Assembly (NCBI GenBank): GCA_026989015.1
Contig: JALSKD010000016.1
Span: 21,710-85,709 of the forward strand
DNA length: 64,000 bases
Direction: 5' to 3'
Source of the DNA: Gammaproteobacteria bacterium
GTDB lineage: Bacteria > Pseudomonadota > Gammaproteobacteria > GCA-001735895
Shown: positions 1 to 12,519 of the stretch, in pieces
Layout of the letters: each line of letters opens with the position of its first letter
How positions within the stretch are numbered: position 1 is the stretch's first letter
Made by a program: the position numbers and the translations under genes
The notes under the pieces: model-generated
The model's input: the letters and a program-made list of their open reading frames with translations, nothing else
The model's database searches: none
What the model was told of the DNA's origin: nothing

Positions 1-1
1 G

Positions 2-115
2 CCAATGATGCAGAAGATGATGAAAAAACGCGACCGGCACTGGCAGCAGGTGGAGCAGCGACTGGCGAATATCGAGGCGTTGCTGCAGCAACTGGTCGAT
101 CTGCAGAAAAAATGA
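2..115 (+). CDS. 3' end of a coiled-coil protein (C-terminal fragment; gene begins upstream of window)
   Basis: Open frame 2 runs from the window edge to TGA at 113-115; the translation ...MMQKMMKKRDRHWQQVEQRLANIEALLQQLVDLQKK is heptad-like. Identity (ZapA/UbiK-like?) is not established. Confidence 0.3.
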   Translation, partial: PMMQKMMKKRDRHWQQVEQRLANIEALLQQLVDLQKK

Positions 116-210
116 TTCAGTCAATCCGCCGTTCGTTTCCTCGAGGCGAACGGCGGCGGGGGGCAGCGTCTGGAGGGGCGTTGTTCGTCGTCAGCAGTTG
201 ACCCTTCCGA

Positions 211-475
211 GGGAAGTTCTGACCCATTCGGGTATACCTCTGGCTCACAGGCGGGTTCGCTATCAAGGCGTGGCTGTGAAAGCAGGCTGGTTGCCTGGTG
301 AACAGCCGCAACGCAGAGAGCGGATTCGCCTGTGAGCCCCGCAGGGCGCGCCCTGAAGCACGCATCCACGGTGTTGCGCTTCTTGCCAAGGGCCGGGCCA
401 TTGGCGGCGAAGCGCGCCTTGTGGCTGCATGCTTCAGAGTGCGCAGAGGCATGCCCGAATGGGTCAGAGCTTCCC
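211..475 (+). ncRNA. Candidate structured non-coding RNA. The 5' and 3' ends form a ~32-bp closing stem, and there are nested internal hairpins. Alternatives: 6S-like RNA, a regulatory leader, or a MITE-like element.
   Basis: 211-242 (GGGAAGTTCTGACCCATTCGGGTATACCTCTG) is complementary to 444-475, with 2 G-U wobbles and 1 mismatch. There are internal inverted repeats: CTCACAGGCG (~244-253) with CGCCTGTGAG (~326-335), and the palindrome CAGGGCGCGCCCTG. A strong terminator follows immediately. The ORFs here (298..495, 332..649) cross the terminator and look non-coding. Confidence 0.3.
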
Positions 476-494
476 AGGTGTGTGTGCGGCCTTA

Positions 495-537
495 GGGGCG
501 CCTCTCGTCCACCCGGATGTCGGGCGCCCCTCTTTTT
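495..537 (+). terminator. Rho-independent terminator
   Basis: GGGGCGCC ... GGCGCCCC inverted repeat (8-bp GC stem) followed by TCTTTTT. Confidence 0.6.
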
Positions 538-632
538 AAGGACCCACCTTGAAGGGGTCACCGAAAAACAATGTACCCGCATGGTTTTTCGATGGTTCCT
601 GCAGATCGGTCAACCGACCGGGAGGAAAGAGA

Positions 633-875
633 ATGGGTATGGAAGGTGAAGGCATGGGCTTTGGATTCAGTTTCGGCTGGTTGTTCATGATCGGAATCTG
701 GGTGCTGATCGGCCTGGTGGTCATGGCCATGTTGCGCGCCTTTTCCGGGCCGCAAAAGGGCCCGGTCGATGAACGCAGGCGGGCACTCGACATACTCAAC
801 GAGCGCTATGCGCGCGGCGAAATCGATCAACAGGAATACCGGCGCATGAAACATGAAATCAATGAGCGTTACTGA
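633..875 (+). CDS. SHOCT-domain small membrane protein
   Basis: GGGAGGA RBS before the ATG at 633. One TM helix (FGFSFGWLFMIGIWVLIGLVVMAML), then a C-terminal SHOCT-like motif: ALDILNERYARGEIDQQEYRRMKHEI. Confidence 0.55.
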   Translation: MGMEGEGMGFGFSFGWLFMIGIWVLIGLVVMAMLRAFSGPQKGPVDERRRALDILNERYARGEIDQQEYRRMKHEINERY

Positions 876-881
876 ACGGAC

Positions 882-1214
882 ATGAAGACGAAAAAAAGGT
901 CTCTGACCCGTTACCTTGACATCAGAACAGAGCTGGATGATTCACGGGCGAAAGCCGTGTTGCAGGCATTGCGTGAACAGCTTGGAGTCGAGGAGGTGGA
1001 GTTGACCAAAAACCGGATGAGGCTCCGCTACGACCCCTTGCAGACCCGCATGGATCATCTGCAGGCGTTGCTCAAAGAACGGTCGGTAGAGCTTTCCCGC
1101 AGCTGGATTCATTCCTGCCGCCTGGCCTGGTACCAATATCAGGACGAAGCGGTCTGCGAGAACGCCGGTGCGCCGCCTCCTGCCTGCTGCAACAGGCCAC
1201 CGCGACCGCGCTGA
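882..1214 (+). CDS. HMA-like (ferredoxin-fold, heavy-metal-associated-like) protein with degenerate metal site and Cys-rich C-terminal tail
   Basis: ...VELTKNRMRLRYDPLQTRMDHLQALLKE... resembles an HMA domain, but the CxxC is replaced. The C-terminus is CRLAWYQYQDEAVCENAGAPPPACCN. It sits 6 nt after the SHOCT gene and overlaps the next gene. Confidence 0.4.
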   Translation: MKTKKRSLTRYLDIRTELDDSRAKAVLQALREQLGVEEVELTKNRMRLRYDPLQTRMDHLQALLKERSVELSRSWIHSCRLAWYQYQDEAVCENAGAPPPACCNRPPRPR

Positions 1215-1245
1215 CATGAACCCGGAAGCTCAAAAGGGGCAGGGT

Positions 1246-1941
1246 ATGACTACCGTGCTGTTGCCTCGCCTTGTTTTGGCCGTTCTGCTGCTGGTGCTGT
1301 TCTGGCTGTTGATCGGTCAGCGTATCGGTCATGACCTCCTCGCCGATCCGCAGGCATTGATCGACAACCTGAGGGGCAGCGGATGGCGGGGGCCGGCCGC
1401 GATCATCGGGTTGATGATGCTGGCCGTGGTGCTCAATCCGCTACCCAGCGCGCCCGTCGCACTGGCCGCCGGCGCACTCTATGGCCACGGCTGGGGCATG
1501 CTTTATGTCGTGATTGGAGCGACGCTGGGCGCTGTTCTGGCCTTTCTGATTGCGCGCCATGTGGCGGCCGACTGGGTGGAGTCGCGGCTCGGACGCTTTG
1601 CCACCTGGCAGCGCTGGAACGACCAGAACCGGCTGATGGTCGTGGTGCTGATTGCCCGGCTCTTGCCCTTTGTGTCCTTCGATCTCGCCAGCTATGCGGC
1701 CGGTGTGACCCGCTTGAGCCTGTGGCGATTCCTGCTGGCAACGGTGATCGGCCTGTTGCCGGGCAGTTTCTTGCTGGCCCATGTGGGCGGGGCGATGACG
1801 GCGGGCGACCGGGTGTTTGCCGGGCTGTCCGTTTTGGCTCTGGGCGTGCTGACCCTGCTGCCAGTAGCCTGGGGATGGTGGCGTCAGCGCCGTTTGCGGG
1901 TGCCGGGCGTCGATACTGAAATCAAGGTACACAAGTCATGA
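1246..1941 (+). CDS. TVP38/TMEM64 (DedA/SNARE-associated) family membrane protein
   Basis: Multi-TM translation with a typical DedA core (...GALYGHGWGMLYVVIGATLGAVLAFLIARH..., ...LLPFVSFDLASYAAGVTRLSLWRFLLATVIG...). RBS before the ATG at 1246. The stop overlaps the next start (ATGA). Confidence 0.7.
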   Translation: MTTVLLPRLVLAVLLLVLFWLLIGQRIGHDLLADPQALIDNLRGSGWRGPAAIIGLMMLAVVLNPLPSAPVALAAGALYGHGWGMLYVVIGATLGAVLAFLIARHVAADWVESRLGRFATWQRWNDQNRLMVVVLIARLLPFVSFDLASYAAGVTRLSLWRFLLATVIGLLPGSFLLAHVGGAMTAGDRVFAGLSVLALGVLTLLPVAWGWWRQRRLRVPGVDTEIKVHKS

Positions 1942-2342
1942 ACATGAGGATTCGATGGGTGATCGTGACGCTGCTGGCTGCGGGTCTGCTGAGCGGCTGT
2001 GAGCGTGGTGAACGGGCGGCCGGCGCCAATCCGCTGCATCTGCCACCGCCCGGTTTCGTGGGTGACGGGCGCAAGGGCGCTGTCGTCTATCGCCAGAATT
2101 GCCAGACCTGCCACGGCGCGGGTGCCGCCGGTACCGATCAGGGGCCATCACTGCTGCGCGACATCTACGCGCCCGGGCGTCACGCCAACCTGGCGTTTCA
2201 CCTGGCGGTCAAGAACGGGGTCAAGGCCCATCACGACAACAAGGGCGACATGCCTCCGCTGGAGGTTTCCCCCGAGGATGTCGAGCATGTGATCCAGTAT
2301 GTGCGCGAACTGCAGGTCAAGGCCGGGGTGTTCAGGCCGTGA
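1938..2342 (+). CDS. Monoheme c-type cytochrome, lipoprotein
   Basis: Lipobox LLSGC, then the heme-binding motif CQTCH. ATGA overlaps with both flanking genes. Confidence 0.75.
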   Translation: MNMRIRWVIVTLLAAGLLSGCERGERAAGANPLHLPPPGFVGDGRKGAVVYRQNCQTCHGAGAAGTDQGPSLLRDIYAPGRHANLAFHLAVKNGVKAHHDNKGDMPPLEVSPEDVEHVIQYVRELQVKAGVFRP

Positions 2343-3082
2343 TGGAATTGTCGCTGCTTGGCCTGTTCACGGCTTTCGGTGCCGGGGTGATTTCCTTTCT
2401 CTCACCCTGCGTGCTGCCACTGGTGCCGGGCTATGTCTCCTGGATCGGTGGTGTATCCGCACGAGGCAAGGGTCAGGGCCGCCGTCTGCGCGAACGCCTG
2501 TCCACCCTGTTGTTGAGTTTCAATTTCGTGCTCGGTTTCTCGACCGTGTTCATTGCCTTTGGCGCATCGGCCAGTTTCATCGGTCAATGGCTGGCGGCCT
2601 GGCGCGCCGAAATGAACACCGTCGGCGGCATCATCATCATCCTGTTCGGCCTGTTCATTTCCGGCCTGGTCCGTTTCGACTGGATGCAGCGCGACCGCCG
2701 CTATCACGGGCAACTGGCGGGCGGCCCGGGGCTGGCCGCCTACCTGCTCGGTCTGGCCTTCGCCTTCGGCTGGACCCCATGCATTGGCCCGATACTGGGC
2801 GCCATCCTGACCCTGAGCGCCACCACCTCCAGCTTGGTCAACGAGGGCACCACCCTGCTGGCGTTCTATTCGCTGGGGCTCGGACTTCCGTTCATGCTGG
2901 CGGCGCTGTTTACCGAGGGCTTCATTCGGCGCCTGCAGCGGCTCAAGACCCAGGGTCTGTGGCTGCAGCGCCTTGCCGGTGCGCTGATGATCCTGATGGG
3001 AATCGCCATGATCACCGGTTATCTGACCGATTTTTCAATATGGATCCTGAAAACCTTTCCCTGGCTGGGAACGCTGGGATAA
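2342..3082 (+). CDS. ccdA: Cytochrome c biogenesis / thiol-disulfide transmembrane electron transporter CcdA (DsbD core family)
   Basis: MELSLLGLFTAFGAGVISFLSPCVLPLVPGYVSW... and a second conserved Cys region ...GWTPCIGPILGAIL... in a 6-TM protein. Confidence 0.8.
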   Translation: MELSLLGLFTAFGAGVISFLSPCVLPLVPGYVSWIGGVSARGKGQGRRLRERLSTLLLSFNFVLGFSTVFIAFGASASFIGQWLAAWRAEMNTVGGIIIILFGLFISGLVRFDWMQRDRRYHGQLAGGPGLAAYLLGLAFAFGWTPCIGPILGAILTLSATTSSLVNEGTTLLAFYSLGLGLPFMLAALFTEGFIRRLQRLKTQGLWLQRLAGALMILMGIAMITGYLTDFSIWILKTFPWLGTLG

Positions 3083-3106
3083 CCCCGTACACAAGAGGAG
3101 AACACG

Positions 3107-4231
3107 ATGAAAACAGCAACGAGATTATTGAGCGCCACCGCCTTGCTGTGGCTGGCGGTGCAACCTCTGCAGGCGGCCGAGCGCTGGTACAGTGAGCAGC
3201 AGGTGAAAAAGGGCGCAGACCTGTTCGCGCAGAACTGCGCCTCCTGTCATGGTGCAAAGGGCGAGGGCACGAAAAACTGGAAAACCCCCGATGACAACGG
3301 CGTCTATCCGCCGCCCCCCATCAACGGCAAGGGCCATGCCTGGCATCATGACCTGGCCCTGCTGCGCGGCACGGTCAAAAACGGCGGCAAGCCGGTGGGC
3401 GGAACCATGCCGGCATTTGGGGACAGGCTGTCGAAGGAAGACATCGATGCGGTCATCGCCTATGTGCAATCACTCTGGCCGGAGGAGATTTACCAGCGCT
3501 GGGCCAGCCGCGGTGAACCCCGCGCCGACGCGCCCGACCAGCCGCAATCGCTGAGCGCCCAGCTGCAACCGGGCAAGCGCGCAGTGACCCGGCTGCTGGA
3601 ACAACGCCTGGGACAGCCGGTGCCACCGGCGGTGGAGACGCCGGTCAAGGGCATCTATCAGACCCGTCTGGGCGCCAATATCGGCTACCTCACCGAGGAC
3701 GGACGCTACATCTTCATGGGCCAACTGGTGGACCTGAAGACCGGCGCCAACCTGACCGAAACCGCCAAGCGCGCGGCGGTGACCGACAAACTGGCCGAGG
3801 TGGCGCAGAAGGACAAGGTGATCTATCCGGCCAGTGGCGAGGAGAAGGCCGTGCTGACCGTATTCACCGACACCACCTGCCCCTATTGCCGCAAGCTGCA
3901 CAAAGAGGTTCCGGAGTTGAACAAGGCCGGCATCAGCGTGCATTATCTGCCGTTTCCCCGTGGCGGTGCCGCCGGGCCCGGATACACTTCGCTGAAACAG
4001 GTATGGTGCGCCCAGGACCGCCGGAAAGCCATGAGCATCGCCAAGCAGCAGATGGCGGGCGACCTGCCCGATCCCGATTGCGCGGCCGCGGCAATGGTGG
4101 ACCGGGGATACCGTCTGGGCAATGAAGTGGGCGTCACCGGCACCCCGGCCCTGTTCAAGTCCAACGGCCAGAAGATCGAGGGCTATGTACCCTATCAGCA
4201 ACTGATTCCGATGGTATTGGGCAATTCATAG
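3107..4231 (+). CDS. Secreted fusion protein: N-terminal monoheme cytochrome c domain + C-terminal DsbC/DsbG-type thiol:disulfide interchange domain
   Basis: Signal peptide. CASCH heme motif near the N-terminus. C-terminal thioredoxin-fold with CPYC (TDTTCPYCRKLH) and DsbC/G-like flanking sequence (…ISVHYLPFP…GTPALF…). Confidence 0.75.
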   Translation: MKTATRLLSATALLWLAVQPLQAAERWYSEQQVKKGADLFAQNCASCHGAKGEGTKNWKTPDDNGVYPPPPINGKGHAWHHDLALLRGTVKNGGKPVGGTMPAFGDRLSKEDIDAVIAYVQSLWPEEIYQRWASRGEPRADAPDQPQSLSAQLQPGKRAVTRLLEQRLGQPVPPAVETPVKGIYQTRLGANIGYLTEDGRYIFMGQLVDLKTGANLTETAKRAAVTDKLAEVAQKDKVIYPASGEEKAVLTVFTDTTCPYCRKLHKEVPELNKAGISVHYLPFPRGGAAGPGYTSLKQVWCAQDRRKAMSIAKQQMAGDLPDPDCAAAAMVDRGYRLGNEVGVTGTPALFKSNGQKIEGYVPYQQLIPMVLGNS

Positions 4232-4298
4232 CGTATATCATGGATTGCTTATGTACAGTGACCGGTTATGATGCGTTTTTGACCCAGGAGTATTCCCG

Positions 4299-6509
4299 AT
4301 GAGTGAACCCATCCGCCTCTCCATCGCCGGCATGGCCTGTGCCGGCTGCGTCTCCGCCGTCGAGAACGCGCTGAAGGAAGTGCCCGGTGTCGAGGAAGCC
4401 ACGGTCAACCTGGGCGAGCGCACCGCCACGGTGACCGGAACCGCGGATGCCGATGCGTTGATCGCTGCAGTGAAAAAGGCCGGCTACGATGCCGCCGAAT
4501 TGCGCGGCCTGGAAGACGAGCAGGAAAAGGAAAACCTGGAGCTTCAGGAATACCGCAAGCTGTGGTGGCGCGCCCTCGTCGCAGGCGGCATCGGTGCCGC
4601 CATGTTCATCGGCGGCGCGCTGGGCCTGTTCCCGGAGATCGAGGAATCCCCGGGCTTCTGGATGTTCCTGAGTCTGGTGACGCTGGGCGTGCTCACCCTG
4701 GTCGGCGGACATTTTTTCAGGGGAGCACTGGCTTCGCTGCGCGCCGGGCGCGGCAACATGGATACTCTGGTGGCGCTGGGCACCGGCTCCGCCTGGCTCT
4801 ACTCCACCGTGGTGGTGCTGTTTCCCGACAGCCTGCCCAGCCTGGCGCGGCACGCCTATTTCGATGCCGCGGTCATCATCGTCGGCCTGGTATCGCTCGG
4901 CTCCGCGCTGGAAACCAAGGCACGGGGCAAGACCTCCGAAGCCATCAAGCACCTGATCGGCCTGCAACCGGCCACCGCCCGCGTCATCCGCAACGGCGAG
5001 GAGATCGACCTGCCGGTGGAGGAAATCGGCCTCGAGGAAACCATTCGCATCCGTCCCGGCGAACGCATCCCGGTGGACGGCGAAATCTTCGAGGGCGAAT
5101 CCCATGTGGACGAGTCCATGCTTACCGGCGAACCCATGCCGGTCTCCAAGAAAGTGGGTGATGCGGTCTACAGCGGCACCCTGAACACCTCCGGCAGCTT
5201 TCTGATGAAGGCCACCAAGATCGGCAAGGACACCGCGCTCGCCCACATCATCGAGCTGGTGCGCCAGGCCCAGTCCAGCAAGCCGCAAATCGGCCGCCTG
5301 GTGGACAAGGTGGCCGCCATCTTCGTGCCGGTGGTGGTGACCATTGCCGTCATCAGCTTCATCGTCTGGTACCTCTGGGGTCCCGAACCCAGCCTTGCCT
5401 ACGCCATGGTCTCGGCCATGACCGTGCTGGTCATCGCCTGCCCCTGCGCGCTCGGCCTGGCCACCCCCATCTCGATCATGGTCGGCGTCGGCCGTGCCGC
5501 CGAGATGGGTGTACTGATCCGCAATGGCGAAGCCCTGCAAAGCGCCAGCCAGCTCGGCACCATCGTGGTGGACAAGACCGGCACCGTTACCGAAGGCCGC
5601 CCACGGCTGACCACGCTGCTGCCGCAGCCCGGCTTCGACGAGAGCGAAGCCCTGCAGCGCGCCGCCGCGCTGGAAACCGGCTCCGAACACCCGTTGGCCG
5701 CCTCCATACTCGAAGCGGCGCGTGAGCGGGGTATCGAGGCCACGGCGGTCGAAGGGTTCCGGGCCGTCTCCGGCTTCGGCGTCGAGGGCGAACGCGACGG
5801 CCACCGCCTGATCCTCGGCAACGCACGGTTCATGAAGCAGCAGGCCGTTGATCTGGGTGACAGCGAAGCCCGCGCCGAGCAGCTGGCCGCATCCGGCGAA
5901 ACCCCCATCTACCTCGCCGAGGATGGCCGGCTGGTCGCCCTGCTGGGCATCTCCGATCCGCCACGGGAAGACTCGAAACAGGCCATCGAACGCCTGCACC
6001 GCCTGGGACTCACCGTCATCATGCTCACCGGCGACAACGCCCGCACCGCGCGCGCCATCGCCGACCGCGTCGGCATCGACGAAGTCATCGCCGAAGTATT
6101 GCCCGAAGACAAGACCGGCAAGATCACCGAACTGCAGGCCCGCGGCCGCAAGGTGGCGATGGTCGGCGACGGCATCAACGACGCCCCGGCGCTGGCCCAG
6201 GCCAATGTCGGCATCGCCGTCGGCAGCGGCGCCGATGTGGCCATCGAATCCGCCGACATCGCGCTGATGCGCAACTCCCTCAACGGCGTAGCCGACGCCA
6301 TCGCCCTGTCGCGTGCCACCCTGCGCAACATCAAGCAGAACCTGTTCGGCGCCTTCATCTACAATGTGCTCGGCATCCCCGTCGCCGCCGGCGTGCTCTA
6401 CCCCTTCTACGGCATCCTGCTCAGCCCCATCATCGCCGCCGCCGCCATGAGCATGAGCTCGGTCACCGTCGTCACCAACGCCCTGCGCCTGCGCAAGCAG
6501 CGTCTGTGA
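4299..6509 (+). CDS. copA: Copper-translocating P1B-type ATPase
   Basis: N-terminal HMA with GMACAGC; the CPC transmembrane motif; DKTGT phosphorylation site; GDGINDAP. Confidence 0.9.
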
Positions 6510-6624
6510 ACCGGTCCCGGGCGTGGCTTGTCCCGCCCGGATGCCCGGTCGGTGAACCCGGTCACGCACGATGCCGGGCAATGCCTTATCATCGCGGTTT
6601 TACGCAGCTCAAGGGACCATCGCG

Positions 6625-7515
6625 ATGCGCAATGTGCTGACCATCGATGTCGAGGACTACTTTCAGGTGGCTTCGCTGGCCGAACGCATCCGGCCGGAGG
6701 ACTGGGACGGAATAGCGCCGCGGGTGGAGGACAATGTGCGCCGCCTGCTGGATCTGTTCGACCGTCATCAGGTGAAGGCGACCCATTTCGTGCTCGGCTG
6801 GATCGCCGAGCGCTTTCCGCAGCTGATCCGCGAAATCGACGCGCGCGGACACGAGATCGCCAGCCACGGCTACAGCCACCAGCTGATCTACAGCCAGACG
6901 CCGGAGGTGTTCGCGCGCGAGACGCGGGATTCCAAGGCCCTCTTGGAAGACATCACCGGCAAGCCGGTGGAAGGCTACCGCGCCGCCAGCTATTCGATCA
7001 CCCGCAAGTCGCTGTGGGCGCTGGATATCCTCGCCGAGGCGGGGTTCATCTACGATTCAAGCATCTTTCCAGTGGTGCATGACCGCTACGGCATCAAGGG
7101 TTCACCGGAGCGGCCGCACCGTCTGCGCACGCCGCAGGGGCATTCGCTGGTGGAGTTTCCGTTGTCCACCTACCGCCTGTTGGGGCAGACCCTGCCGGTG
7201 GCCGGAGGCGGGTATTTCCGCCTCTACCCCTATGCGCTGAGCCGCCATTTCTACCGTGCGCTGAACCGTGCCCGCACGCCCTTCGTGTTCTATCTGCATC
7301 CCTGGGAGATCGATCCGGCTCAGCCGCGTGTGGACGGCCTGAGCCGTTTGTCCCGCTTCCGCCATTACAATAATCTGGACGATTGCGAACGCCGCCTCGA
7401 CCGCTTGCTGTCGGAGTTCGATTTCGAGCCGATGAAGCCGCATCTGCAGCGGCTGGGGATGTTCGACGATGCTCTGCCGCCAAAGGCGGATTACGGTGTT
7501 GAGCGGGCTGCCTGA
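6625..7515 (+). CDS. Polysaccharide deacetylase family protein (DUF3473 / PEP-CTERM-locus-type subfamily)
   Basis: MRNVLTIDVEDYFQV... NodB-like start and ...ASHGYSHQLIY...; the C-terminal DUF3473-like region is conserved. Confidence 0.7.
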   Translation: MRNVLTIDVEDYFQVASLAERIRPEDWDGIAPRVEDNVRRLLDLFDRHQVKATHFVLGWIAERFPQLIREIDARGHEIASHGYSHQLIYSQTPEVFARETRDSKALLEDITGKPVEGYRAASYSITRKSLWALDILAEAGFIYDSSIFPVVHDRYGIKGSPERPHRLRTPQGHSLVEFPLSTYRLLGQTLPVAGGGYFRLYPYALSRHFYRALNRARTPFVFYLHPWEIDPAQPRVDGLSRLSRFRHYNNLDDCERRLDRLLSEFDFEPMKPHLQRLGMFDDALPPKADYGVERAA

Positions 7516-7530
7516 AGACGGCTGAGGCGC

Positions 7531-8364
7531 TCAGCGCAGGGAGAAGGTGAGGTTGGCCCAGTGGCTCTGCCACTCGGCGTTCGGGTCCAGGCTGTCGCTG
7601 GAGTAGGGGAGGATCTTGACCGCCTTGAGCATCCAGTCACCGGCGCGGTCGAGGGTGATGCTCACCCGGCCTTCGGCATCCGTCCGCGCCTGCTGTTTTT
7701 CCTCCGGTGCGCCGCGAGTGAAGGCGATCAGCAGCAGGTCCTCGGCCGGCTTTCCCCGGTAGAGCAGCCGCACCGTCAGACGGTCACCGGGCTTGAGGCG
7801 GCAGGGGTTGACTTCGGGGACGATCTCCAGGGTCTGGCCGACGGCCAGGGTGGAGGCATCCAGGGTGAAGGCATCACCGGCCTGCACCAGGGCCTTGCTG
7901 TGGCGCTGGTAGCGCTCCAGCCCGCGCCGGTTTTCCTCTCCGCGTTCGCGACGCAGCGCGAGGGCATTGTCCAACCCTTCCATGATCAGGTACTTGCGGA
8001 AGGTTTGCGGGTCGATATCGACGAAGCTGAAGGTGCTCTGGTAGGTGACCAGCCAGGTGCCGGGGCGGTCGGGGATGAAACGGCCGGCCGGGTCGTCGCC
8101 CAGCGCGCCGGGCATGGGGCGTGATTCGCCGGGCAGGTGCAGCGAGAAGTCTTCGTACCAGTTGCGGATGTTGGGCAGGCTGTCGCCGACGAAGTCGGCG
8201 CCCACATGGATCGAAACATCGACAGGCTGTCCCACCGGCGTATAAAATGGATGCGCCTCGAGCCAGAAGTCGTGGGCCTGTGCCGTTGCGGCCCATGCGA
8301 TGGCGACCAGCCCCCATCTTGCCACACCCGTTATTCCCCGGAAAATCCCATGCGCCCTGTTCAT
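7531..8364 (-). CDS. DUF4198 family periplasmic protein (nickel/cobalt-uptake-associated family)
   Basis: Signal peptide, then ...AHDFWLEAHPFYTPVGQPVDVSIHVGADF.... The ATG at 8364 would overlap the divergent gene start; an in-frame GTG at ~8325 is an alternative start. The upper part of the long minus ORF (to 9384) is antisense noise. Confidence 0.55.
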   Translation of the reverse strand: MNRAHGIFRGITGVARWGLVAIAWAATAQAHDFWLEAHPFYTPVGQPVDVSIHVGADFVGDSLPNIRNWYEDFSLHLPGESRPMPGALGDDPAGRFIPDRPGTWLVTYQSTFSFVDIDPQTFRKYLIMEGLDNALALRRERGEENRRGLERYQRHSKALVQAGDAFTLDASTLAVGQTLEIVPEVNPCRLKPGDRLTVRLLYRGKPAEDLLLIAFTRGAPEEKQQARTDAEGRVSITLDRAGDWMLKAVKILPYSSDSLDPNAEWQSHWANLTFSLR

Positions 8365-9498
8365 CTGTTCGTTGTATTCCTCTGTCTTGTCGGCCTTGCC
8401 GGACCGTTGGCGGCGCATCAGCTGCGGCCTGCGCTGGCGACAGTATCCTTTGAGCCCGGCGGAACGGTCAAGCTGCGCATCCAGACCAATGCGGAGGCCC
8501 TGCTGGCCGGCATCGACCCGAAGCACCGCAATACCAACGATTCCCCAAGAGCCGGCGAGTACAACCATCTGCGCGGGCTGCCGCCCGAGGCCATCGCGCA
8601 GGCCTTTGCCGGGTTCGCCGAGCGCTATGCGGAGGGGCTGCGGCTGGAGGCGGACAGCGGTGATGGGCAATGGCGGCTGCTGGAATGGCGCTATCGGGGC
8701 ATCGAAGTGCCGCCGGTGGGCGATACCCGGTTGTCGCGCAAGTCGCTGATCCGTTATCAGGGGATTCTGCCGGAGGGTGCGGCCCGCGTGCGCTGGTCCT
8801 ATGCCGCCGACTATGGGGATTCGGTCATCAGCTTCACCCAGCCGGGCCAGCAAGAGCCGGTCAGCTACTGGCTCACCGGCGGGGAACCCAGCCCGGAATA
8901 TGCGCTCGACCGGGTCGTGCAACCCCGTGCCTGGACCGCGGTGGCGGCCGATTATCTGCAGCTGGGTTTCGTCCACATCCTGCCCCGTGGGCTGGATCAC
9001 ATCCTGTTTGTGCTGGGGCTGTTCCTGCTGTCGCGCCGACTCAAGCCGCTGCTGTGGCAGGTGACGGCCTTCACCGTCGCCCACAGCATCACCCTGGCGC
9101 TGTCCATTTACGGCTATATCGACCTGCCATCGACCGTGGTCGAGCCGGCGATCGCCCTGTCCATTGCCTATGTCGGGATCGAAAACATCCTCACCCGCCA
9201 GCTCCACGCCTGGCGGGTGGTCATCGTGTTCCTGTTCGGCCTGTTGCACGGCATGGGCTTTGCCGGGGTGCTGACCGAGCTGGGCCTGCCGGAAAACGAA
9301 TTCGTCACCGCGCTGGTTTCCTTCAACATCGGTGTCGAATTCGGCCAGCTTGCGGTCATCAGCCTGGCCTGGCTCGCGGTGCACCGCATCATGCGTGACG
9401 AGGCGCGCTATCGCCGCTGGGTGGTGGTTCCCGGTTCCCTCGGAATTGCCGTCATGGGCCTGTACTGGACCGTCGAGCGGCTGGGCTGGCTGGGGTGA
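8350..9498 (+). CDS. HupE/UreJ_2-family metal (Ni/Co-type) transporter with large N-terminal periplasmic domain
   Basis: Signal peptide MRPVHLFVVFLCLVGLAGPLAA; C-terminal TM domain with the signature ...FVHILPRGLDHILFVLGLFLL... and ...GLLHGMGFAG.... Confidence 0.6.
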   Translation: MRPVHLFVVFLCLVGLAGPLAAHQLRPALATVSFEPGGTVKLRIQTNAEALLAGIDPKHRNTNDSPRAGEYNHLRGLPPEAIAQAFAGFAERYAEGLRLEADSGDGQWRLLEWRYRGIEVPPVGDTRLSRKSLIRYQGILPEGAARVRWSYAADYGDSVISFTQPGQQEPVSYWLTGGEPSPEYALDRVVQPRAWTAVAADYLQLGFVHILPRGLDHILFVLGLFLLSRRLKPLLWQVTAFTVAHSITLALSIYGYIDLPSTVVEPAIALSIAYVGIENILTRQLHAWRVVIVFLFGLLHGMGFAGVLTELGLPENEFVTALVSFNIGVEFGQLAVISLAWLAVHRIMRDEARYRRWVVVPGSLGIAVMGLYWTVERLGWLG

Positions 9499-10938: not shown

Positions 10939-11055
10939 TTCTTAACGATCCATAACATAGAAATAATCGTTTTTACATATAACACTGCGCTTGCGAGGAT
11001 GATTCCCGAGCCGTGACTGCCTGTCCGGCCTTTGTCCAATCACCGGAGAATCATC

Positions 11056-12519
11056 ATGAGCAAGAACACCCTTCTGACCACCGCCACCGGATCGCCGGTG
11101 CCCGACGACGACACCAGCATCAGCGCAGGCCCGCGCGGCCCGCTGACTTGGGACAACCACTATACCTTCGAGAAGCTGGCGCATTTCAACCGCGAGCGCA
11201 TCCCCGAGCGGGTGGTGCACGCGCGCGGCACCGGCGCTTACGGCACCTTCACCCTGACCCGCTCGATGAGCGAATGGACCATTGCCGATTTCTTGCAGCG
11301 CGAAGGCGAGCAGACCGAGGCATTCGTGCGGTTTTCCACGGTCGGCGGCGGCCAGGATTCCAGCGACTATGCACGGGATCCGCGCGGCTTTGCGGTCAAG
11401 TTCTACACCGCCGAGGGCAATTACGACATGGTGGGCAACAACACGCCGGTGTTCTTTTTGCGCGATGCCATCAAGTTCCCGGATTTCATCCATTCGCAGA
11501 AGAAGAACCCGCGCAGCAATTTGCCCGATCCGGCGGCGATGTACGAATTCTGGGCCAACCACCCGCAATCGCTGCACCAGGTGACGATCCTGATGTCCGA
11601 TCGGGGCATACCGGCCAGTTATCGGCACATGCACGGCTTCAGTTCGCACACCTTCAGTTTCTGGAATGCCGAGGGCGAGCGTTTCTGGTTCAAATGGCAT
11701 TTCAAGACCGACCAGGGCATCCGCAACCTGAGTCCCGAGGAAGCGGCGGCGATGCCGCCCTTCGGCGCGCAACAGGATCTGGTCGAGGCCATCGACCGGG
11801 GCGATTTCCCCAGCTGGACGGCCAAGGTGCAGATCATGACCGAGGCACAGGCGCGGGACTATCACATCAATCCCTTCGATCTGACCAAGATCTGGCCGCA
11901 CGGCGATTTCCCGCTGATCGAGGTGGGGCGGCTGGAGCTGAACCGCAATGTGGAGAACTATTTCGCCGAGACCGAGCAGGCCTGTTTCGCGCCGAGCAAC
12001 CTGGTACCGGGCATCGGTGCTTCGCCGGACAAGATGCTGCAAGGCCGCCTGCTGGCCTATCAGGACGCGCACCGCTACCGCGTCGGCGTCAATGCCAACC
12101 AGCTGCCGGTGAACGCTGCCCGTTGCCCGGTGCACCACTACCAGCGCGACGGCGCGATGGCCGGCTGCCCGGTGGCCGGCGGCAACAACCAGGGCAGCGG
12201 GGTGAATTTCTATCCCAATGACGGAATCAATGCCGGCGCGCCGGTGCCCGAGCCGCGGGTGGCCGAGCCACCGATGCCGCTGGAGGAGGAGGCCTGGGTG
12301 AACCGCTATCCGGTCGGCGCGGACGAGGACCACTACAGCCAGGCCGGTGACCTGTTCCGGTGGATGGACGATGCGCAGCGCGAAGGGCTGGCTCGCGCCA
12401 TCGCCGAAGGACTGTCACAGGCCAGTCCTTCGGTGCAGGAGCGGATGCTGGAGCAGTTTGCGCGGGCCGATGCCGAGTATGCGGCACGGGTCGAGGCGGC
12501 GCTCAAGGCGCGGGCCTGA
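11056..12519 (+). CDS. katA: Monofunctional heme catalase (small-subunit clade)
   Basis: ...RERIPERVVHARGTGAYGTF... with the distal His/Asn catalase motifs. ~487 aa. Confidence 0.9.
   Translation: MSKNTLLTTATGSPVPDDDTSISAGPRGPLTWDNHYTFEKLAHFNRERIPERVVHARGTGAYGTFTLTRSMSEWTIADFLQREGEQTEAFVRFSTVGGGQDSSDYARDPRGFAVKFYTAEGNYDMVGNNTPVFFLRDAIKFPDFIHSQKKNPRSNLPDPAAMYEFWANHPQSLHQVTILMSDRGIPASYRHMHGFSSHTFSFWNAEGERFWFKWHFKTDQGIRNLSPEEAAAMPPFGAQQDLVEAIDRGDFPSWTAKVQIMTEAQARDYHINPFDLTKIWPHGDFPLIEVGRLELNRNVENYFAETEQACFAPSNLVPGIGASPDKMLQGRLLAYQDAHRYRVGVNANQLPVNAARCPVHHYQRDGAMAGCPVAGGNNQGSGVNFYPNDGINAGAPVPEPRVAEPPMPLEEEAWVNRYPVGADEDHYSQAGDLFRWMDDAQREGLARAIAEGLSQASPSVQERMLEQFARADAEYAARVEAALKARA

Follow-up and report, generated by a model that had tools for sequence, protein, structure and literature searches.

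Cytochromes c (CopJ, CopM) have, to our knowledge, been listed in copper-resistance clusters for about twenty years, with neither their function nor their partner ever demonstrated. The published order of one such cluster is copA1B1C1D1-I-J-G-F (PMC11647585), in which copJ has been termed a putative cytochrome c (PMC12029693). The cop-cluster cytochrome carries the name CopM in Pseudomonas and Xanthomonas, and the ‘CopJ’ of Rubrivivax gelatinosus, a 14-kDa protein containing a CxxC motif, is not described further (PMC4600104).

Periplasmic thioredoxin-fold proteins also have ties to copper. In E. coli, DsbC is needed under copper stress (Hiniker 2005, as cited in PMC7558416), and copper tolerance is conferred by the Scs reductive system (PMC3322552). 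A role in the interconversion of Cu(I) and Cu(II) has been proposed for CopG, a thioredoxin-like copper protein that matters anaerobically (PMC7558416, PMC12428095).

Class-I cytochromes c tethered to a partner domain have precedents as well. Pseudomonas putida reportedly possesses a Sco-cytochrome c fusion, a protein associated with Banci et al. 2011 (JBIC 16:391). In the cytochrome-tethered copper nitrite reductases (e.g., PDB 3ZIY, 2ZOO), one-electron transfer is intramolecular. The window analyzed here (the whole 64,000-nucleotide stretch of DNA) encodes a protein in which a CopJ-type cytochrome is joined to DsbC. Both component families are already known, and literature searches found no published description of a cytochrome c-DsbC fusion.

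Domain architecture and relatives of the fusion protein

The fusion gene is preceded by an AGGAG ribosome-binding site located 8 nt upstream. Its product is predicted from sequence to be an exported polypeptide made of a CopJ-family cytochrome c, a tether and a complete DsbC, with the following features:

3107..4231, + strand: fusion gene, one unbroken ORF of 374 aa
3107..3175, + strand: Sec signal peptide, residues 1-23, read from the sequence (cleavage MKTATRLLSATALLWLAVQPLQA/AE, i.e., after LQA)
3176..3511, + strand: CopJ-family class-I cytochrome c domain, residues 24-135 (Pfam Cytochrom_C at 33-124, 1e-15; Cytochrome_CBB3)
3236..3250, + strand: heme attachment site C44-A-S-C-H48 (single CxxCH, invariant in 111 sequences)
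3335..3349, + strand: H77-A-W79-H80-H81, family-specific motif (invariant in both alignments, A2 and A3, including pMOL30-type CopJ)
3407..3409, + strand: Met101 in GGTMPAF, probable sixth heme ligand (invariant; aligns with the Met-Pro of CcoP)
3512..3565, + strand: flexible tether, residues 136-153 (AlphaFold2 pLDDT <50 at 137-153; alignment columns without a consensus residue)
3566..3760, + strand: DsbC N-terminal dimerization domain, residues 154-218 (PF10411, 1e-13; aligns with E. coli DsbC from residue 21 onward)
3812..4210, + strand: DsbC thioredoxin-fold catalytic domain, residues 236-368 (PF13098, Thioredoxin_2 at 242-368, 1e-17; PDB 1eej, E 1e-33)
3878..3889, + strand: active site C258-P-Y-C261 (both Cys and Y260 invariant; P259 in at least 90% of sequences)
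4007..4081, + strand: C301 and C325 (invariant; align with the structural disulfide C141-C163 of E. coli DsbC)
4142..4147, + strand: T346-P347, cis-proline loop (G345, T346 and P347 invariant; aligns with GTPA of E. coli DsbC)

The preliminary description of this gene, a heme cytochrome and a disulfide isomerase in a single polypeptide, holds: Pfam recovers both domains within the one ORF, and the signal peptide is followed by CASCH within the first 60 residues, as had been read. In the AlphaFold2 model, the signal region forms a helix at residues 3-17, followed by low pLDDT at 19-22. The region between the two domains had been taken for a ∼100-aa low-complexity linker, and this has to be revised, as residues 154-218 are the dimerization domain (pLDDT ∼89-93) and disorder is confined to ∼136-153. 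The tether is thus reduced to ∼17-20 residues, and a full-length DsbC, not a bare thioredoxin domain, makes up the 220 residues at the C-terminus. In long variants of the fusion, the dimerization domain is present twice. At a pTM of 0.60, the model does not reliably place the heme domain against the DsbC part.

Sequence comparison places the cytochrome domain in the CopJ family (Cupriavidus metallidurans pMOL30, copI-copJ-copG-copF of the copSRABCDIJGF cluster). It matches the copJ-position cytochrome of a Cupriavidus pauculus cop cluster (45% identity over 86% of the domain, E 2e-22), whose gene is 97% identical in DNA sequence to the one encoding the copJ-position cytochrome c of pMOL30. The fusion cytochrome and pMOL30-type CopJ have in common the CxxCH site, a G-H-(A/T)-W-H-H motif and the Met of MP(A)F. 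Unlike CopJ, which is a standalone protein of ∼150-175 aa, the domain is here covalently joined to DsbC. The HxWHH motif stands between CASCH and Met101, aligns with the ‘DWRWG’ loop of CcoP, and is a candidate copper site beside the heme. The nitrite reductase cytochromes are also detectable relatives (E 2e-8 to 6e-7). The preliminary description had missed the CopJ relationship, treating the domain as a generic cytochrome.

Structurally, residues 154-370 reproduce the DsbC plan (E. coli, Salmonella, Haemophilus; PDB 1EEJ, 4I5Q, 1T3B): dimerization domain, hinge helix, thioredoxin domain, CxxC, cis-Pro loop and second Cys pair. Foldseek aligned the AlphaFold2 model with full-length DsbC structures over ∼215 columns (target-normalized TM 0.71-0.76), in keeping with the isomerase assignment made beforehand. 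Features that set the fusion apart from DsbC include an added N-terminal cytochrome c, an active site reading CPYC instead of CGYC, and a gene encoded with CcdA, not DsbD, inside a copper operon. The NCBIfam DsbC equivalog model scores 132.8 bits, below its cutoff of 215, and the protein accordingly classes, on sequence, as a member of the DsbC family that is not an equivalog of enterobacterial DsbC. Of the ‘DsbC/G-type’ fold proposed earlier, the CPYC motif and the DsbC type stand. Membership in DsbG was rejected, the DsbG model scoring only 38 bits.

The Scs system resembles the arrangement found here: a thiol reductase in the membrane, belonging to the DsbD superfamily, is paired with an oligomeric periplasmic isomerase of thioredoxin fold, and the system is linked to copper tolerance. 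However, the catalytic domain of ScsC is DsbA-like and its oligomerization domain is a different one, and its Foldseek match is weaker than that of DsbC (target-normalized TM ∼0.5-0.6, 17-21% identity). Unlike ScsB, the CcdA of the window lacks an alpha domain, and where ScsB typically has a Lys eight residues after the first Cys, this CcdA has a Tyr (SPCVLPLVPGY). Scs also contains no heme. Assignment to ScsC/Scs was rejected, since ScsC structures rank well below DsbC and the CcdA is a transmembrane core only.

CopG (DUF411) is likewise cysteine-based, thioredoxin-like and periplasmic, and is encoded directly before the fusion in three related loci (L019-L021, order MCO-CopB-cytochrome-CopG-fusion). 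It nevertheless bears no sequence relation to DsbC, carries a CxCC motif in place of CxxC, and is devoid of the dimerization domain; no copG gene is present in the window. The P. putida fusion and the nitrite reductases are alike in tethering a class-I cytochrome c to another domain, which in the former is Sco, a thioredoxin-fold/copper partner, and in the latter a cupredoxin.

Operon, distribution and copper-locus context

The fusion gene lies sixth in a tightly packed operon (SHOCT, hypothetical, DedA, lipoprotein cytochrome c, CcdA, fusion, CopA), whose other members are:

633..875, + strand: SHOCT-domain small membrane protein, 80 aa, first gene of the operon (Pfam SHOCT, 1e-9; gene call in L083)
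882..1214, + strand: conserved hypothetical, 110 aa (C-terminal motif PPPACCNRPP)
1216..1941, + strand: DedA/VTT-family membrane protein (Pfam VTT_dom, 1e-24; gene call in L083)
1938..2342, + strand: lipoprotein monoheme cytochrome c (lipobox LSGC, CQTCH; Pfam Cytochrome_CBB3 and Cytochrom_C)
2342..3082, + strand: CcdA, the DsbD transmembrane core only (Pfam DsbD_TM, 2e-16), directly 5' of the fusion
4299..6509, + strand: CopA-type Cu(I) P1B ATPase, last gene of the operon (Pfam HMA, E1-E2_ATPase, Hydrolase; GMACAGC and CPC motifs)

CcdA keeps both redox cysteines (SPCVLP, TPCIGP) and lacks the DsbD alpha and gamma domains. The 110-aa hypothetical had no Pfam match; its family numbers six copies, all six in copper loci, with CCN(K/R)PP invariant, and homologues of the SHOCT protein (cluster 10) were found repeatedly in copper loci. 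Positions 1-7000 of the window yielded no Rfam match and no sigma-70-like promoter.

The fusion is a genuine protein and not two genes merged by a frameshift, sequencing error or misassembly, an artifact for which no support was found and whose probability is negligible. The identical protein occurs in independent NCBI, ENA and Logan assemblies, and the four-domain architecture is common to at least 120 protein clusters that are 47-83% identical (best local alignment). Thirty of the 80 fetched loci carry a fused copy, nearly all of them labeled gammaproteobacterial MAGs; OZ244194.1 is an example of a complete MAG with the fusion. The junction itself is conserved, with confident AlphaFold2 modeling on either side, and C44, C47, H48, M101, C258, C261, C301 and C325 are invariant in the 111-sequence alignment. 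The fusion was not found on any PLSDB plasmid.

Several lineages have lost the cytochrome domain and kept DsbC, which indicates that the heme is dispensable. P0213 is a deletion form, and three proteins with cytochrome and DsbC_N only (P0128, P0157, P0158) probably come from genes truncated where a contig stops. The only other thiol-oxidoreductase fusion found, P0204, joins a TlpA-like domain to a CopJ cytochrome; as a singleton on a 1168-bp contig, it was given little weight as independent support.

Genomic neighborhood analysis of the window and ∼80 related loci, with neighbor families confirmed by Pfam, strongly backs the copper link suggested at the outset. Searched alone, the cytochrome domain has matches on 340 plasmids, and in Cupriavidus, including pMOL30, the matching gene sits between a cupredoxin gene and genes for DUF411 and a P-type ATPase. 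Standalone copies have within 5 kb a multicopper oxidase (18/49), a P1B ATPase (17/49), CopB (14/49) or CopG/DUF411 (13/49), and CopG is their commonest immediate neighbor, lying directly beside the cytochrome in 12/49; Marinobacter, Saccharospirillum and C. metallidurans are cultured carriers of a standalone CopJ next to CopG. Cus also belongs to the detoxification genes of this family context, alongside MCO, CopB and CopG. The cytochrome occupying the CopM position of the examined loci (cluster 16) is without HxWHH.

The family of the window's lipoprotein cytochrome (cluster 3) is the most frequent neighbor of the fused copies, located ≤5 kb from 16 of the 30 fusions and directly upstream in 9. 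CopA adjoins the fusion in the window and L001, and a CcdA with both cysteines adjoins it in four fusion loci only (the window, L001, L002 and L042). In another four (L011, L016-L018), the fusion is the X of ftsK-lolA-rarA-DUF938-X-sdhCDAB, a housekeeping slot holding no copper genes, which suggests that the heme may serve a general, non-copper purpose.

Proposed mechanism and rival explanations

Our preferred reading, held tentatively and at slightly less than even probability, is that the fusion is a copper-stress DsbC that is reduced by CcdA and whose tethered heme exchanges single electrons with copper and the neighboring cytochrome. The protein would form a V-shaped, DsbC-like dimer with two mobile heme domains attached. 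Cytoplasmic reducing power would pass through CcdA to the CPYC pair, a route named in the preliminary description and made plausible by the adjacent upstream gene. The DsbC part would then mend disulfides scrambled by copper, and its CPYC thiolates might also hold Cu(I), by analogy with ScsC. The tethered heme, for its part, would trade single electrons with copper at the HxWHH or CPYC site, and with the neighboring cytochrome c leading to the respiratory chain. The outcome would be a Cu(I)/Cu(II) conversion without O2, near the very thiols that copper attacks. In favor of this reading are the conserved architecture, the CopJ kinship and copper-locus setting of the cytochrome, the recurrent cluster-3 cytochrome, the adjacent CcdA, and the published copper links of DsbC, Scs and CopG. 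Against it count the small number of fusion loci with adjacent CcdA, the copper-free housekeeping loci, the lineages that dispensed with the heme domain, and the unreliable placement of that domain in the model. As to direction, we lean slightly toward oxidation of Cu(I) supplied by the co-transcribed CopA, as against reduction of Cu(II).

A more ambitious version, which we consider rather unlikely, sees a heme-thiol-copper redox machine in which the path from thioredoxin through CcdA to CPYC is joined, via copper held between HxWHH and CPYC, to c-type cytochromes and the respiratory chain. The protein would then act as an O2-independent periplasmic cuprous oxidase/cupric reductase and, by extension, the standalone CopJ and CopM would be the missing redox partners of CopG.

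His/Met class-I c-hemes lie at ∼ +150 to +350 mV and the DsbC CxxC at ∼ -130 mV, so electrons would flow from thiol or Cu(I) to heme. Reduction of the DsbC disulfide by a His/Met heme is accordingly very unlikely, and a tethered heme, as a one-electron carrier, would not perform it. This bears on a variant based on the preliminary description, where electrons pass from the lipoprotein cytochrome through the heme to the DsbC disulfide, bypassing CcdA/DsbD. Two cytochromes are indeed encoded in series, adjacent CcdA is missing from most fusion loci, and the Sco-cytochrome c fusion studied by Banci et al. 2011 is said to show electron transfer. However, the invariant His48 and Met101 in a CcoP-like class-I fold predict a high-potential heme, ∼300-450 mV above the DsbC couple, and CcdA is present in the window. 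With the thermodynamics against it, we regard this variant as highly improbable.

The opposite direction, from thiol to heme, is thermodynamically allowed, and the fusion could be a disulfide oxidase coupled to the respiratory chain, the heme re-oxidizing the CPYC dithiol and passing electrons to the neighboring cytochrome c and a terminal oxidase. Such an enzyme would be a bacterial counterpart of the mitochondrial route from Mia40/Erv1 to cytochrome c, with a DsbC-fold dimer turned into a DsbA-like oxidant, as in HP0231/DsbK of H. pylori; dimers of the DsbC/G fold have been documented to work as oxidases (PMC4597128). The frequency of the second cytochrome as neighbor, the lack of CcdA in most fusion loci, and the occupation of the housekeeping dsbC slot directly 5' of sdhCDAB all fit. 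On the other hand, no flavin or quinone is available to split the two-electron dithiol into one-electron steps, and outside the fusion this cytochrome family associates with copper genes and not with Dsb genes. The window's CcdA, a reductant, is moreover co-operonic, which would make oxidation of CPYC by heme a futile drain of reducing power. We therefore judge an oxidase role unlikely. A function in assembly under copper stress appears quite improbable. Here, CcdA and the fusion would keep the CxxCH of apocytochromes or the cysteines of cbb3/CuA oxidases reduced, with CopA as a CcoI-like copper supplier. For both window cytochromes, similarity is greatest to the CcoP subunit of cbb3 oxidase, cytochrome c maturation classically relies on CcdA for reduction, and copper toxicity is known to strike the assembly of cytochromes c in the periplasm (PMC4600104). 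Yet the 12 kb examined contain no ccm, ccs or ccoGHIS genes, reductases of apocytochromes are TlpA-like monomers and not DsbC dimers, and the family context consists of detoxification genes.

Implications for copper-cluster cytochromes

The fusion offers a first physical clue to the partners of the unexplained copper-cluster cytochromes. On the logic that fused domains work together, the hemes of copper clusters would be expected to act on or beside cysteine-based periplasmic proteins, and the adjacency of CopG to the standalone cytochromes points likewise to cysteine-protein partners. How bacteria alter the redox state of copper, or shield thiols from it, under conditions that disable O2-dependent multicopper oxidases thereby becomes approachable on one soluble protein. 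For its part, the DsbC family gains a form that is predicted to bear heme.

Architecture of the fusion protein

The gene at 3107-4231 (+) is an unbroken open reading frame of 374 residues, preceded by AGGAG 8 nt upstream of its start. The domain search proposed in a preliminary description returned three Pfam domains:

residues 33-124: cytochrome c (Cytochrom_C / Cytochrome_CBB3, about 1e-15)
residues 154-218: DsbC_N (1e-13)
residues 242-368: Thioredoxin_2 (1e-17)

The signal peptide, single heme site and CPYC thioredoxin domain of that description were all borne out: the protein has only six cysteines, with CASCH (Cys 44/47) as the sole CxxCH, CPYC at Cys 258/261 within Thioredoxin_2, and a further pair at 301 and 325. 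The "~100-aa low-complexity linker" was a misreading. Apart from a disordered segment at residues 137-153, Pfam and AlphaFold2 assign this stretch to the DsbC dimerisation domain and hinge helix. The AlphaFold2 model, built from 111 homologues, has a mean pLDDT of 86.5 and falls below 50 only at residues 19-22 and 137-153.

Structurally, residues ~155-370 match full-length DsbC structures in Foldseek (target-normalised TM 0.71-0.76, ~215 columns), with clearly weaker scores for DsbG, DsbP and ScsC. E. coli DsbC is also a sequence match (E 1e-33), its GTP cis-Pro loop and second cysteine pair aligning with those of the fusion. Against the NCBIfam models, the protein reaches 133 bits for the DsbC equivalog, short of the 215-bit cutoff, and 38 bits for DsbG. 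It follows that the C-terminal part is a DsbC, divergent but complete: every structural feature of the family is present, although the equivalog cutoff is missed.

A frameshift or assembly artefact is ruled out, as the identical protein is found in NCBI, JGI, ENA and Logan assemblies and the architecture is widely kept. All of the 120 best clusters in a collection of 5.8 billion proteins share the Pfam architecture, at 47-83% identity over the best local alignment. In the 111-sequence alignment, C44, C47 and H48 of the heme site and M101, the probable sixth heme ligand, are invariant, as are H77, W79, H80 and H81, C258, Y260, C261, C301 and C325, and G345, T346 and P347. The gene is almost certainly a genuine CopJ-DsbC fusion. 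Variants of 458-516 residues carry a tandem duplication of DsbC_N, without a second heme, between the cytochrome and thioredoxin domains (P0007, P0015, P0028, P0032, P0071 and P0155; loci L028, L033, L035 and L036); this could alter oligomeric state or arm reach.

The CopJ cytochrome family

The N-terminal domain also occurs as a standalone cytochrome of ~150-170 residues, found 49 times when one genome per species was scanned, with cultured Marinobacter and Saccharospirillum among its carriers. ORFs were clustered over all loci and cluster identities checked by Pfam. Within 5 kb of the standalone cytochrome lie a multicopper oxidase (18/49 loci), a P1B ATPase (17/49), CopB (14/49) or CopG/DUF411 (13/49), with CusA/B, MerR-type regulators, DUF302, DUF4399 and SHOCT as further neighbours; 12 of the 49 directly adjoin a same-strand CopG/DUF411 gene. 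Copper loci are thus the home of these cytochromes.

The domain alone matched 340 plasmids. A 174-residue "cytochrome c" of Cupriavidus, including pMOL30 of C. metallidurans CH34, carries the motif GHTWHH and is encoded between a cupredoxin gene on one side and DUF411 and P-type ATPase genes on the other, with copABCD alongside. This arrangement agrees with the order copA1B1C1D1-I-J-G-F in the literature (PMC11647585), where copJ encodes a putative cytochrome c (PMC12029693). Since this match, at 45% identity to the heme domain of the fusion (E 2e-22), occupies the copJ position, that domain is a CopJ-family cytochrome. In Pseudomonas and Xanthomonas, the cop-cluster cytochrome is named CopM (PMC3056050, PMC11651105).

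No solved structure of a CopJ-type cytochrome was found. The nearest solved relatives come from two enzyme groups, cbb3 oxidases (the CcoP domain, E about 4e-15) and copper nitrite reductases (their tethered cytochrome); HxWHH takes the position of the CcoP "DWRWG" loop. A search of 1.84 billion representatives gave 4197 relatives, among which, multiheme proteins aside, the DsbC fusion is the sole recurrent longer architecture. P0213 (235 residues) joins a CopJ cytochrome to a thioredoxin remnant lacking DsbC_N and CxxC, and P0204 (280 residues) a TlpA-like CPPC redoxin to a CopJ cytochrome; either may represent a rare fusion or an error of assembly. As a second thiol-oxidoreductase fusion, P0204 is unreliable, being a singleton on a 1168-bp contig.

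Genomic neighborhoods of the fusion

In the window, the fusion belongs to a closely packed, single-strand run of genes at 633-6509:

first of the run (+): SHOCT gene
882-1214 (+): 110-residue hypothetical protein with C-terminal PPPACCNRPP, no Pfam match
between this gene and the cytochrome (+): DedA
1938-2342 (+): lipoprotein cytochrome c
directly 5' of the fusion gene (+): CcdA, with both redox cysteines and without alpha or gamma domains
3107-4231 (+): the fusion
last of the run, directly 3' of the fusion gene (+): CopA

The 110-residue protein belongs to a small family confined to copper loci (L001, L003, L015, L045 and L070), with an invariant C-terminal CCN(K/R)PP and, in L045 and L070, an additional cysteine-rich N-terminal extension. 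The start of the SHOCT gene is preceded, at a distance of 30 nt, by an imperfect 24-nt inverted repeat, TGAAGGGGTCACCGAAAAACAATG / CATGGTTTTTCGATGGTTCCTGCA (550-603), which may be an operator; no regulator gene adjoins it. Ahead of it is a GC-rich hairpin with a T run (494-537). Genes downstream of the operon are unrelated: DUF4198 (7534-8409, -) and HupE/UreJ (8359-9495, +) form a divergent pair that is a putative metal-uptake module, with a catalase beyond (11032-12519, +).

The fusion is present in 30 of the 80 loci retrieved by the one-genome-per-species scan. Nearly all carriers are MAGs labelled gammaproteobacterial or proteobacterial; Sedimenticola, Arenicellales and hydrothermal or sediment bins are among them, and a single bin bears the label Urechidicola. 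The commonest neighbour is cluster 3, the family of the window's upstream cytochrome, found within 5 kb in 16/30 loci and directly upstream in 9. A P1B ATPase (7/30), a multicopper oxidase (6/30) and CopG (5/30) follow, and CcdA adjoins the fusion in just four loci: the window, L001, L002 and L042. Cluster 3 occurs in 24 loci with the His-rich signature Y.P.HH.D..F...G...HHW.FGDMP (HHD instead of HHW in the window); its lipoprotein form is confined to the window, L001-L003, L040, L042 and L063. Genes for proteins of ~270 residues (L002 5341-6147, L003 7518-8351, L009 1193-2005, L042 4891-5706) separate the cluster-3 cytochrome gene from that of CcdA or of the fusion; the window has no such gene. 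The proteins that were read over their whole length end in a cytochrome c with HAWHH, in which 'RM.AW' replaces the CopJ-type 'GG.MP.F'; the L003 protein does not match the H.WHH pattern, and no clear family was found for their N-terminal half.

The order MCO-CopB-cytochrome-CopG-fusion recurs in L019-L021, and in L037 the same slot is filled by an unfused DsbC. There is a second, housekeeping context, ftsK-lolA-rarA-DUF938-X-sdhCDAB, where position X is taken by the fusion in L011 and L016-L018 but by an unfused DsbC in L029-L032 and L034. Neighbour-joining analysis of the DsbC parts groups the fused proteins into a single clade; the unfused L037 and L029-L032 fall within it, indicating that the cytochrome was secondarily lost there. 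One MAG carries both forms (unfused housekeeping L031, fused L013). Fused and plain DsbC in one housekeeping slot offer a natural comparison for the heme's contribution.

Proposed function

The fusion probably acts in copper stress. E. coli under copper stress reportedly needs DsbC (Hiniker 2005), and ScsC-like thiolate sites bind Cu(I) tightly. The preliminary description had proposed that cytochromes feed electrons into the DsbC disulfide. The DsbC CxxC potential is near -130 mV and that of a His/Met class-I c-heme near +150 to +350 mV; a heme carries one electron, whereas dithiol/disulfide is a two-electron couple. These potentials and electron counts make such reduction unlikely. In a copper operon, a tethered heme that moves single electrons would most naturally pair with the Cu(I)/Cu(II) couple.

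In the proposed mechanism, the DsbC dimer, kept reduced by CcdA, would mend copper-scrambled disulfides and could hold Cu(I). Its two mobile CopJ domains would trade electrons with copper, at the His-rich HxWHH site or CPYC, and with the cluster-3 cytochrome leading to the respiratory chain, yielding O2-independent copper redox conversion. Cu(I) oxidation would be slightly preferred because CopA, a Cu(I) expeller, is co-transcribed. This heme-copper model is consistent with CopG, a thioredoxin-like copper protein that matters anaerobically and has a proposed role in switching copper between Cu(I) and Cu(II) (PMC7558416, PMC12428095), being the commonest direct neighbour of standalone CopJ. The specific relay is nonetheless tentative, and somewhat likelier to be wrong than right.

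The main rival is a disulfide oxidase coupled to the respiratory chain, passing electrons from thiol to heme, cytochrome and oxidase. The fusions in the housekeeping slot beside sdh would suit it, but CcdA in the same operon argues against it, as does the lack of a cofactor for two-electron to one-electron conversion. The protein could also serve the assembly of cytochromes or oxidases, although none of the ccm, ccs and cco genes occurs nearby, in the 12 kb covered.

The fusion resembles the Scs system, whose proteins confer copper tolerance (PMC3322552), in its proposed mode of working but is not a member: ScsC differs in catalytic fold from the DsbC of the fusion, and ScsB has an alpha domain and a signature Lys, both missing from the window's CcdA. 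Automated annotation labels such proteins "cytochrome c family protein/protein-disulfide isomerase", and our literature search found no paper describing or testing a cytochrome c-DsbC fusion. This natural fusion hints at the partner class of the long-unexplained cytochromes of copper clusters.
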